Shown here: piece after piece, positions 1 to 3,000 of the stretch
How the letters are laid out: each line of letters opens with the position of its first letter
How positions within the stretch are numbered: the stretch's first letter is position 1
DNA from: a virus
Length of the DNA: 22,209 nt
UHGV virus genome: UHGV-1596397
Direction: 5' to 3' (one strand)
Position numbers: made by a program

Positions 1-3000
1 ATTTGTATACAGATAATTTTATAGGGTATACCACATGAGCAAGAAATTTACAAAGACTATTCTTTCATCTGCTGTTGCCGGTCTGTTGTTGGTGAGCGGT
101 GGTGCTATGGCTGAAAAATATCTTACACGTAAGATAAGTGATAAATACTATTTTCAACTCAATACTGAAAATAATCATGCTTCTATTAGAGATAACAGCA
201 ATGAAATAGTGATTGGTCCATTTGATATTAATACAGGTAAAGTTACTACGGTAAATATGTCAGAGGTATTTGATGTGCTAAAAGACGCAAAGCCTGACAA
301 AAATGGTAGTATTCAGAGTTCTTTTAATAAATATCAGAATGAATTAGCTTTTTCGGTATATGTTCCTGAGCTATTGAAAAAGAATATAGGCAACCTTACA
401 GAGAAAGATATTGATAGTGTTAGTTCATTAGTAACAAAAATATCAGGAACGTTAGAGTCGAAGGGACTTCTTACAAAGCAGAGTTCAGTATTATATAATA
501 ATGCTGTTGAAGCAGGAATTAATTCAACTACCGCTCTTAATTTTATTGCGAATGGCGGTAGTGCAACGCCAGAAGGGTTAAAGGCACAGATTCAAGCGCT
601 TAGCGAAACAAACCAAAAGATTACTGATATTAATGAAGGCACATCCGTAGGTACCTCCTTTGCTCTAGACAGAGAAGGTAAGATTACCTTAAACGAAAGA
701 GAAAGTTCCGGTGACCGCGAGTCTGTGAAAAATGTGGTTGCAGGTCTTGTTGACGATACAACAGTGTTTGTTGCTGAAGATGGCTCTCTGACCATGGATC
801 GCAGCACATCTAATACCAAGCGAGTGAATGAGGCACTCGTCGATCTGGATCAATCAGTGAAAGACAGAACCACTGTTGGTATGAATTCAGACGGCAGCCT
901 GACCACTGCTGAAGGAGCTACAAAAACTGTTGCGGTAAGTGAAGGTCTTGTTTCCCTGTCCGGAAGAACTGACCGTATTGATGCAGCCGTTGGTGGCATT
1001 GACACCCGTGTCACCAAAAACACTCAGGCTATCCAGAATCACTCCCGCCAGCTGCAGGAGCATAACGCACGCCTGAACAGCCAGCAGCGCCAGATTCGTG
1101 AAAACCACGAAGAAATGAAACGTGCGGCAGCACAGAGTGCGGCGCTGTCCGGTCTGTTCCAGCCGTACAGTGTGGGTAAATTCAACGCCACGGCAGCCCT
1201 GGGTGGTTACAGTGACAAACAGGCTGTGGCTGTTGGTGTGGGTTACCGCTTCAACGAGCAGACCGCAGCCAAAGCAGGTATTGCAGCCAGCGACGGTGAT
1301 GTTTCCTACAACGTAGGTGTGAACTTCGAGTTTTAATTGCTGAAGGTGACATGAAGTATGACGGCAGGCGCAGGACTCTGGTCTGCCGTTTTTCATGGGG
1401 CATAAAAAACAGGAAGGTGCTGCGATGAAGGTGATACTGGCAACCCGGAACCGCTATCTGGAATATGGCCTGCAGGCGTTACTGAAGGAACACAGTGTGA
1501 TACTGGCGAGGGAGTTTTTCCTGCCGGAGAACCGCCGTTATATCCCGGACTTTGACGAATCCTGGCTGATAATCAGTGATGGCCTGCTGGGCAGGCTGAT
1601 GCGGTGTATGTTCCAGGGGCGTCATTTTCTGCAACTGGATGCGGAGTTGCTCCGTGATGGTGAGCAGATAAGTGATGCCATACACAACGGCGTCTGGACG
1701 TATAACAGTGCTGCCCGCCCGCTGACGATGTCAGAGATGGTGGTGATGTTCGGTTATGTCTACCGCCAGTCGAGACCCTGTCGCCTTGCCAGTGAAATGG
1801 GTATCCACACGAAGACGGTGAATACCTTTCTGTATACGGGAATGGCGAAAAACGGGCTGTATGGTGTGAGCGTCAGACGGCTTGTTGGTGCCTGATGGCG
1901 GTCCTGCCGGATGCGCAGAATCTTCTGATAGTTCAGAAGGTGCAGATGATGAATAAAGAGAGATGCCGGACAATCGGAAGAAAACGTTACACCACAGGCG
2001 CAATGTGCTTCATGCTGTTTGTGTGGCTTGGTGGTGTGCTGGCTCTTGTTGCTACAGCTGCGGTGGTAATGCAGTAAAAAAAGGGGAGCAACATGCTCCC
2101 CGACCAGAAGAAAGACGTTTGATAACAATTAGTGAGTTGTTACGTCTTGTCCAGAATATCATAGCAACACTCTGTTGCAGTGATACCGATCGCGATTTTA
2201 GCGAATTCCATCATAAATCCCCTGATTTTTAAGCCTGAAGCAGTCAAAGGAATTTCTATGCCCTATATCGATATCACCACGATGCGTGGGATGATGCCGC
2301 GCGTTGTGACATCCATGCTGCCCGAGCATTCCGCTGTACTGGCGGAGGACTGCCATTTCCGGTTTGGTGTTATTACACCAGAACGTCAGATATCCGGGGT
2401 TGAGAAAACATTCACAATTAAGCCAAAAACAATTTTTCATTACCGTGACGATTTCTGGTTTGCATGGCCGGATGTGGTGGATGTGATCCGCAGTCCGATC
2501 GCTCAGGACCCCCACGGGCGTATTTACTACACTGACGGGCGTTTTCCTAAAGTGACGGATGCGACCATTGCCACAAAAGGGGACGGGAATCACCCGACAT
2601 CATCGTATCGTCTTGGGATCCCCGCGCCGACGACAGCTCCTGTCTGTACTGTCCAGCAGGGCGGTGATGTTTCTGACGATAACCCGAATGATGATGAAAC
2701 CCGGTTTTATACGGAAACCTTTGTCTCAGATTATGGTGAAGAAGGTCCGCCAGGTCCGGCGTCTCTGGAGGTAACACTCCGTACTCCGGGAACTGCGGTA
2801 CAACTGACGCTGGCTCCGGTGCCATTGCAGAATGCCAGTATTAAACGTCGTCGTATTTATCGTTCTGCCTCAGGGGGAGGAGAAGCCGATTTTTTACTCG
2901 TGGCTGAACTGGATGCATCCGTGCTCAGTTACACGGATAAAATACCGGCGAAAAATCTTGGACCTTCGCTGGCGACATGGGATTACCTGCCGCCGCCAGA

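Follow-up and report, generated by a model that had tools for sequence, protein, structure and literature searches.

An AT-rich front common to the prophage-borne eib adhesin genes of Escherichia coli

Does an abrupt change in base composition within a gene record the grafting of one piece of DNA onto another, or is it a property of the family to which the gene belongs? The question is raised by an adhesin gene of the eib family at positions 35–1336 (plus strand) of UHGV virus genome UHGV-1596397, a stretch of 22,209 nucleotides (nt) – hereafter the window – that is E. coli prophage DNA. An earlier note on the same DNA had described the gene as a mosaic in which an adenine-plus-thymine (AT)-rich passenger meets a YadA anchor of phage-typical composition, and had read the junction as the mark of a foreign or rapidly evolving binding domain grafted onto a conserved trimerisation and anchor module. 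Comparison with homologous loci gives a different answer: the AT-rich front is a family feature. The compositional pattern of the window is ordinary for eib genes and offers no evidence of recent foreign acquisition; the best-supported account is that composition tracks module position, not the past of this one gene. The gene itself is an ordinary allele, as yet uncharacterised, in a known family.

Base composition along the gene and across the family

The compositional heterogeneity reported for 35–1336 is real. In 150-bp windows guanine-plus-cytosine (GC) content is 0.29–0.36 to about position 500, 0.41–0.49 at about 450–1000 and 0.51–0.59 at about 900–1300; by segment it is 0.33 (35–550), 0.47 (551–1018) and 0.55 (1019–1336), with GC at third codon positions (GC3) of 0.24, 0.37 and 0.60 respectively. 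A likelihood change-point analysis with one breakpoint places it at nt 547, where GC moves from 0.326 to 0.506 with a log-likelihood ratio (LLR) of 20.8; among 500 codon shuffles the mean LLR was 2.1 and the maximum 9.7. Two breakpoints fall at 547 and 889 and separate GC values of 0.33, 0.45 and 0.55. The composition is a two-step gradient with its main step near 547, rather than one junction at 850–900. An AT-rich 5′ part does exist, but it extends only to about 547 and not over the first 850 bp or so, 548–889 being intermediate; the phage-like composition claimed from about 900 is confirmed, the DNA from about 890 (GC 0.55, GC3 0.60) matching the neighbouring phage genes (GC 0.50–0.55, GC3 0.49–0.64).

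At 0.322, positions 1–500 are lower in GC than any other 500-bp interval of the 22.2-kb window, for which the median is 0.518 and the 5th percentile 0.401; the other accessory genes, or morons, of the prophage are moderately low, at 0.42–0.44. The runs of AAT and ATT codons noticed by eye are confirmed by codon counts: over 35–736 the ratio AAT:AAC is 17:4 and ATT:ATA:ATC is 12:4:0, and over 737–1333 AAT:AAC is 4:8. Residues 27–234 are rich in serine (11%), asparagine (10%), lysine (9%) and isoleucine (7%). In the predicted N-terminal globular domain (NTD, nt 113–547) GC is 0.30 and GC3 about 0.25; the GC expected from its residues is 0.41, compared with 0.53 for the 3′ end, and about half of the deficit is attributable to amino-acid content and about half to synonymous codon choice.

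Evidence that this pattern belongs to the family came from ten homologues compared at the DNA level – eight E. coli prophage alleles together with EibA and EibD. In all ten, the first half of the gene has a GC content of 0.34–0.46 and the last 300 nt one of 0.54–0.56; likewise all ten have a change point, from 0.33–0.45 to 0.50–0.56, with LLR values of 5.8–23.7 (the weakest, 5.8, in EibD), whatever the type of head or anchor. The earlier note had set a graft scar against an AT-rich passenger conserved among homologues, and it is the shared pattern that was found. The main step at nt 547 is equally hard to regard as a junction, given that it lies inside a divergent patch, at the predicted end of the NTD, and is no breakpoint of homology. 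In two loci (L002 and L003) the GC step falls exactly where DNA similarity to the window restarts, at nt 737.

Neither is the AT-rich part co-extensive with the passenger. The intergenic DNA 5′ of eib has a GC content of 0.33–0.43 in all loci, against 0.49–0.56 in the flanking DUF4376 gene, and in a contig where the identical allele still has its upstream DNA attached, the best fit places the low-GC block between −461 and +518, counted from the ATG (GC 0.34, with 0.50 and 0.51 on its two flanks). About half of the block is thus conserved non-coding upstream DNA, the left half lying beyond the edge of the window. In every allele the GC3 of the 5′ part is 0.25–0.39 even though synonymous sites are saturated; because GC3 stays low despite this saturation, the AT bias looks like a maintained state rather than the fading trace of a recent import.

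A comparable gradient was not seen in distant relatives of the anchor (36–66% identity; Neisseria, Moraxella, Proteus, Edwardsiella, Sutterella and others), which were obtained by scanning genome contigs with a stalk/anchor query, a scan that yielded no orthologue outside E. coli. The pattern is therefore particular to the E. coli eib cassette family and not to trimeric autotransporters in general. The literature that we searched on GC content and mosaicism in trimeric autotransporters contained no mention of a family-wide low-GC block over the regulatory region and NTD, which may not have been spelled out before.

Domain architecture and mosaic structure

The open reading frame (ORF) predicted by the earlier note at 35–1336 is real and complete, encoding 433 amino acids (aa), and on sequence grounds the product is an Eib-family trimeric autotransporter adhesin of the EibA-like, NTD-only kind. 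The assignment to the Eib family, with a YadA anchor, stands: Pfam YadA_anchor (PF03895) matches aa 375–433 (E 1.3e-15; 57.6 bits against a cut-off of 22.7), a search of the PDB returns the YadA anchor 2lme (E 2.3e-18), and aa 238–342, comprising the saddle and left-handed coiled coil, align with residues 179–276 of EibD (2xqh) at E 4.5e-20 with long identical runs. phrog_9547 matches over its full length (E 1.9e-160). Anchor, saddle and coiled coil, the aspartate involved in binding the Fc part of immunoglobulin G (IgG) and the cassette context are all present.

The gene begins with a putative signal peptide (nt 35–112; aa 1–26, cleavage ...GAMA|E as read from the sequence pattern), which forms the left conserved flank of the variable cassette; its GC content is 0.46 and its amino-acid identity 58–100% in nearly all of 95 family members. 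This signal-like 26-residue N-terminus is conserved family-wide. The stalk aligns with the EibD coiled coil. The hypervariable NTD (nt 113–547; aa 27–171), delimited by an AlphaFold2 (AF2) model, the GC change point and a drop in identity, is modelled as a beta-meander with helices, with predicted local distance difference test (pLDDT) scores of 84–94 at model residues 1–140. The Eib-type NTD, of which this domain is a candidate member, has been described as having a novel fold made of an antiparallel sheet with helices. The confident part of the model ends near aa 171, that is, at nt 547; since this is where the GC change point falls, the AT-rich core can be equated with the NTD. For aa 76–170 the best relative, identical copies excepted, has at most 46% identity. 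A linker helix (model residues 153–174) and connector motifs follow (nt 548–736; aa 172–234; GC 0.45), and beyond the helix the AF2 model has low-confidence segments that are probably trimer-dependent. This region is still allele-specific, with 67% identity to L001-type alleles and 20–34% to most others.

Beyond it lies the conserved stalk and saddle (nt 737–1018), which from nt 737 onwards has 97% DNA identity to L002 and L003 and carries an EibG-type IgG-Fc motif of ten residues (aa 311–320, nt 965–994). The conserved aspartate is D316 (nt 980–982), and D316-A317 corresponds to D387-Y388 of EibD and D391-A392 of EibG; aa 277–328 are missing from many family members. The left-handed coiled coil and the YadA-type beta-barrel anchor, of what we term anchor type A, complete the gene (nt 1019–1333, the Pfam anchor covering nt 1157–1333), with identities of 98.7% to L004, 97% to L002 and L003, and 60–88% per 100 bp to L011, the 933W-like prophage of strain UPEC-245U.

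The earlier note had also placed a head in the AT-rich passenger. No Pfam head or neck, and no left-handed parallel beta-roll with SVAIG-type repeats, was matched in the protein, which is gapped over the beta-roll segment of EibD and L007 in our alignment (A1); the PDB sequence search returned no match for aa 27–237. The design is that of EibA, with an NTD and no YadA-like head. By analogy with experiments on EibG and EibD, the NTD may contribute to the specificity of adhesion and aggregation and the conserved stalk probably binds IgG Fc; the protein may also confer serum resistance, as EibG and Cla do. In EibG the D391A substitution abolishes IgG-Fc binding and near-complete deletion of the passenger does not (PMC13534694). 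The suggestion that exchange of the AT-rich domain would alter binding specificity fails for immunoglobulin: the Fc motif sits in the conserved stalk, outside that domain, and Ig binding is therefore not expected to shift upon a swap (PMC13534694).

The earlier note was right, nonetheless, to see a mosaic here: the N-terminal part is variable, the stalk and anchor conserved. Pairwise comparison shows that in most loci the DNA from about 900 bp upstream through nt +75 to +83, the end of the signal peptide, is 94–99% identical; there follows a stretch without detectable DNA similarity, which restarts between +646 and +930 and continues into ORF-156, the next gene. Against L011 the identity of successive 100-bp intervals is 99, 94, 66, 68, 53, 44, 84, 95, 98, 92, 60, 88, 83 and 95%. 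Two patches have been replaced, one in the NTD (about 200–650; 44–68% over 201–600) and one in the anchor (about 1000–1300; 60–88% over 1001–1300), and the remaining prophage is 99.7–100% identical. Within this one gene, the number of synonymous substitutions per site (dS) relative to its relatives ranges from 0.01 to more than 1.5.

Informative sites tell a similar story. The ratio of sites joining the window with L001 to those joining it with L002 is 199:50 over 1–736, 1:62 over 1000–1336 and 8:0 over 1337–1400. By maximum chi-square the breakpoint falls at about 851 (chi2 121; 0/300 permutations), although it may lie anywhere in the near-identical interval 737–1000. A breakpoint near 850–900 had been predicted; a recombination junction does lie in 737–1000, with the chi-square maximum close to the predicted place, but it is not a GC step that marks a graft. 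Across 95 full-length family proteins seven segments reassort independently – the signal peptide, NTD residues 27–75, NTD residues 76–170, a middle part (171–234), the stalk (235–276), the saddle with its Fc motif (277–328, present or absent) and the anchor. The anchor occurs as two types (100% and 83% aa identity), which are shuffled among different heads, and one protein (P0007) has 92% identity in aa 27–75, 100% in the anchor and 22% in aa 76–170, and is without the Fc segment. Taken together, these patterns imply at least three or four junctions in the gene, rather than one.

A further issue is where the passenger came from and how fast it has changed. It aligns over its full length with other NTD-only E. 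coli alleles; some positions do not vary among 30 alleles, and there are common motifs (among them YPVYxPELKxENI, TFALDxxGNITL and SVKxVVAG). Relatives of the passenger were sought by a word-indexed search of 5.8 billion proteins and, with it alone as the query, by a full HMMER scan of 1.84 billion representatives; the searches returned a handful, and all the named ones are from E. coli, two unnamed metagenome proteins matching over short helical stretches of 38–65 residues alone. This whole-length homology, together with the invariant positions and the E. coli origin of the detectable relatives, contradicts the idea of a foreign passenger. Rapid evolution is not shown either: the pairwise ratio of nonsynonymous to synonymous substitution (dN/dS) in the NTD is 0.22–0.25 for the nearest allele and does not exceed 0.8 for the others, dS being saturated, which indicates that the NTD alleles are probably old allelic lineages and not a domain piling up point changes fast. 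Positive selection was considered as the driver and set aside, dN/dS being below 1 wherever it could be estimated; saturation of dS confines this test to the pairwise level, and individual sites may be under selection.

Probable exchange of modules, and alternatives

How, then, did the gene come by its present form? Very probably it has the standard architecture of the eib cassette, whose conserved flanks promote homologous exchange of divergent modules among prophage copies. eib would be an E. coli prophage moron encoding signal peptide, NTD, stalk, saddle, IgG-Fc-binding coiled coil and YadA anchor, with a block of low GC, about 1 kb long, that has the start codon at its centre – conserved non-coding upstream DNA, signal peptide and NTD – and with stalk and anchor of phage-typical GC lying 3′ of that block. 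The NTD would exist as many old, mutually homologous allelic lineages, saturated at synonymous sites, which homologous recombination would swap between the several eib copies in E. coli prophages; the conserved upstream region and signal peptide would serve as the left recombination flank, and the conserved stalk, anchor and ORF-156 as the right. The window allele would then combine a rare NTD, nearest to the UPEC-245U type, with a stalk common to the L001 and L002 types and an L002-type anchor, in a UPEC-245U-like prophage backbone of about 100% identity. We find 1–6 matching places per E. coli genome, and 1–8 homologues per strain have been reported (Kotaka et al., PMC13534694); several copies per genome provide substrates for recombination. 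It is established that trimeric autotransporters are modular and undergo domain shuffling and horizontal transfer (PMC13534694, discussion). The candidate mechanisms of silent cassettes, a diversity-generating retroelement (DGR) or a shufflon were rejected, the window containing no repeats related to 1–1400.

Several observations weigh against this account. Among alleles the GC step falls anywhere from alignment column 192 to 425, so that there is no single strictly conserved boundary. The DNA-level set comprises ten homologous loci out of more than 2000 family proteins, and alignment is uncertain in the most divergent part (260–650), which blurs the site counts there (74:35:36). Recombination between prophage copies is deduced from phylogenetic incongruence.

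A single graft, in which a foreign or fast-evolving binding domain (about 35–880) was joined to a native trimerisation and anchor module and left the GC step as its scar, would account for the strong GC contrast between the ends of the gene, for the statistically supported switch of ancestry within 737–1000, and for an NTD core whose relatives, identical copies aside, do not exceed 46% aa identity. We consider it most improbable. The step recurs in 10/10 homologues with any combination of head and anchor, homology does not break at the main step (547), and low GC reaches 461 bp into conserved upstream DNA; moreover the NTD is homologous to E. coli alleles and found in E. coli only, dN/dS of 0.2–0.8 with saturated dS bespeaks old lineages, and the junctions number at least three or four instead of one. 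It is also very unlikely that the NTD alleles were each imported from an unsampled low-GC pool (phages of low-GC hosts, for example) into resident E. coli phage DNA that supplied stalk and anchor. An NTD GC3 of about 0.25, far from E. coli and phage norms, and the fact that NTD alleles cannot be aligned at the DNA level are what such imports would predict, but the 1.84 billion representatives hold no NTD relative from outside E. coli save the two short helical metagenome matches, the conserved upstream region is equally low in GC and yet 94–99% identical among loci, and anchor relatives in other genera lack a comparable gradient. The least probable reading of all, and one to which we give almost no weight, is that AT-richness is a mere by-product of a hydrophilic surface domain: residues 27–234 are indeed rich in Asn, Lys, Ser and Ile, and lower the expected GC of the NTD to 0.41 against 0.53 at the 3′ end, but the observed value of 0.30 is another 0.11 below expectation, GC3 is 0.24–0.26 against 0.60 in the anchor, and the adjoining non-coding upstream region is just as AT-rich. 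As a sole cause, amino-acid composition is refuted by the GC3 and upstream data.

A regulatory explanation is of a different kind, being compatible with recombination among prophage copies. H-NS prefers AT-rich acquired DNA, and the block might be actively maintained as a platform for silencing of the H-NS type, with binding that nucleates upstream and spreads into the NTD coding region until relieved by IbrAB-like activators. The low-GC block is centred on promoter and start codon, AT bias persists in alleles saturated at synonymous sites, half of the GC deficit is synonymous, and an ibrA/ibrB-like pair lies in the same prophage (18495–20350, minus strand). IbrAB, a reported activator of prophage eib genes, raises the expression of Eib (Sandt et al. 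2002, cited in PMC7649339), and expression of EibG varies with growth conditions (PMC13534694). Against this stand a literature search on EibG and H-NS that found nothing relevant, and the moderately low GC (0.42–0.44) of the other prophage morons, so that a generic explanation by mutation or origin could suffice; we regard the explanation as possible, if doubtful. The more specific proposal that the block of about 1 kb (−460 to +520) is a selectively maintained silencing and counter-silencing platform reaching into coding sequence we think rather unlikely. If true, all NTD alleles, however divergent, would have to use AT-rich codons to keep H-NS-type repression and activation by IbrAB working, and a hypervariable coding module would have its base composition under regulatory selection.

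Exchange of heads between fixed flanks, the reading that we prefer, would explain why there are many alleles per strain and why short-read assemblies break at eib genes; it would also make typing by the conserved 3′ end uninformative about the head. This is of consequence given that Eib-family adhesins play a part in serum resistance, aggregation and chain-like adherence in Shiga toxin-producing E. coli (STEC) negative for the enterocyte effacement locus (LEE) and in other E. coli. A point of some interest is the persistence of AT bias in the promoter-plus-NTD block across saturated alleles.

Known relatives, cassette and prophage context

The closest known design is that of EibA (prophage P-EibA, E. 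coli ECOR-9; AF151091; locus L009), which, like the window protein, has an NTD and no left-handed beta-roll head, and shares with it the saddle, Fc motif, YadA anchor and AT-rich 5′ part (PMC12511318). It also shares the cassette, from tail fibre through ORF-191/DUF4376, a long AT-rich intergenic region and eib to ORF-156 and ORF-60, along with the terminator hairpin. The two differ in that overall aa identity is 51% in alignment A1, the mid-stalk is different, DNA similarity to the window is limited to 1–113 and 871–1400 (about 78–81%), the anchor is of the other type, with a 7-aa SIEKNSK insertion, and the GC step is weaker (0.39 to 0.53, LLR 9.9). EibD and EibG (2XQH, 2XZR), which mediate chain-like adherence and bind IgG Fc, have a saddle, left-handed coiled coil and anchor homologous to those of the window protein (E 4.5e-20), an Fc-binding aspartate (D387 and D391) kept as D316, and an NTD of similar size (Q28–L173 in EibG, aa 27–171 here). 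At 508–511 aa, however, they possess an additional YadA-like beta-roll head, neck and right-handed coiled coil, none of which the window protein has, and in EibD the compositional step is weak (LLR 5.8).

ClaA and ClaB (Kotaka et al. 2026, PMC13534694) are, like the window protein, E. coli trimeric autotransporters related to EibG, and the same paper shows adhesion and Ig binding to be modular functions. The Cla proteins are described as being without NTD and IgG-Fc residues (PMC13534694); the window protein has both, and membership of the Cla lineage was accordingly rejected. L004, L008 and P0007, which are without aa 277–328, resemble Cla in the missing Fc segment.

Parallels exist beyond the family. 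Among intimin (eae) types, conserved membrane and secretion modules act as recombination flanks for divergent surface-exposed modules, as they would in eib, although intimin belongs to a different protein family, has its variable part at the C-terminus (the opposite polarity) and is not prophage-borne. Like the lambda morons lom and bor, eib is probably an autonomous accessory surface-protein gene in the prophage late region, with a putative terminator of its own and a composition unlike that of its neighbours; in eib, however, only the 5′ half and upstream DNA deviate, the 3′ half being phage-typical. The Lom/Ail gene of the window (6154–6888) behaves similarly: a patch at 6001–6500, taking in its 5′ part, is divergent, with 61–72% identity per 100 bp to L011 and a GC content of about 0.37–0.42, so that here again, as in eib, the 5′ part of an outer-membrane protein gene diverges amid nearly 100% identical prophage.

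The cassette itself has a constant order – tail fibre, DUF4376/ORF-191, long intergenic region, eib, terminator hairpin, ORF-156, ORF-60 – that is alike in L001–L010 and was first known from P-EibA and P-EibD. The window opens with the final 34 bp (1–34, plus strand) of the conserved, AT-rich leader containing the ribosome-binding site, the remainder lying beyond its edge. Over 1–113 identity is 81–94% to L001–L005 and EibA, and 75–84% to L006, L008 and EibD (L010); over 1–100 it is 99% to L011. The promoter lies upstream of the window, and a consensus scan of L001 gave one weak match, implausibly near the ATG. In the same conserved intergenic region of UPEC-245U (L001, 2246–2563) there are several terminator-like hairpins of the form GGGGAGC...CTCCCC on the minus strand, and a hairpin resembling this type occurs in the window at 2083–2101 (minus strand).

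At the other end of the transcription unit, a scan finds a terminator-like hairpin and T-run (1370–1394, plus strand), the hairpin at 1370–1386 reading GCAGGACTCTGGTCTGC and followed by CGTTTTTCAT; it recurs in L001, and a stem_loop is annotated at the equivalent site 3′ of eibA and eibD. The conserved partner gene follows at 1425–1895 (plus strand). This ORF-156 homologue is listed as starting at 1395, with the family match beginning at Met11 (phrog_6585 over residues 11–166, profile positions 1–156 of 156, E 6.7e-99); orf-156A and orf-156D occupy the same place 3′ of eibA and eibD, and a 156-aa gene lies 3′ of the identical allele in L045–L050.

The identical 433-aa protein (P0008) is already present in public E. 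coli assemblies, in two contexts: inside a 933W-like prophage (L045–L047, L049 and L050), and at a prophage end beside dinI and a gene pair with Pfam domains matching btsS/btsR (L048). Contigs with the identical allele have DUF4376 upstream and the 156-aa gene followed by 42-, 57- or 60-aa genes downstream. They stop 0.9–1.4 kb upstream, within or shortly before DUF4376, and many eib-family proteins in the databases are labelled partial and come from contigs of 1–2 kb, which fits short-read assemblies that break at multi-copy conserved flanks.

The prophage as a whole is close to that of UPEC-245U, which adjoins ynfF and carries an N4-gp56-type capsid gene: identity to L011 is nearly uniform at 100% over 1900–6000 and 99.7% over 10484–22209. 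Two plus-strand genes that follow the eib cassette match larger PHROG families at the C-terminus only, one at 2180–3883 (internal virion protein phrog_511, positions 314–859 of 862), for which RefSeq gives a 541-aa protein with a start later than the listed GTG, and one at 3880–5148 (tail fibre phrog_496, positions 184–623 of 769); both may be cut-down derivatives lying where two modules join. The gene at 10511–17731 (plus strand) encodes a large polyvalent protein of 2406 aa with LPD38, LPD5, LPD1 and MuF_C domains. Its UPEC-245U homologue is longer (coding sequence 8379 bp), and the window does not align with L011 across 10227–10484, which suggests an indel or replacement at the 5′ end of this gene.

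The ibr-like pair lies about 17 kb from eib and comprises an ibrB-like gene (18495–19139) and an ibrA-like gene (19124–20350), both on the minus strand. The ibrA-like product (408 aa) has PAPS_reduct and DUF3440 domains; the ibrB-like product (214 aa) has a weak ParB/Noc-like match, and the name RefSeq gives to the identical gene is "IbrB-like domain-containing protein". The naming follows RefSeq annotation, NCBIfam having yielded no model specific to IbrA or IbrB. Nearby are a gene with a SocA/Panacea antitoxin domain (17882–18406, plus strand) and, at 20547–21338 (minus strand) with 20917–21498, an antA/antB antirepressor-family gene in tandem partial duplication, whose 54-nt repeats are 98% identical and lie 528 bp apart.

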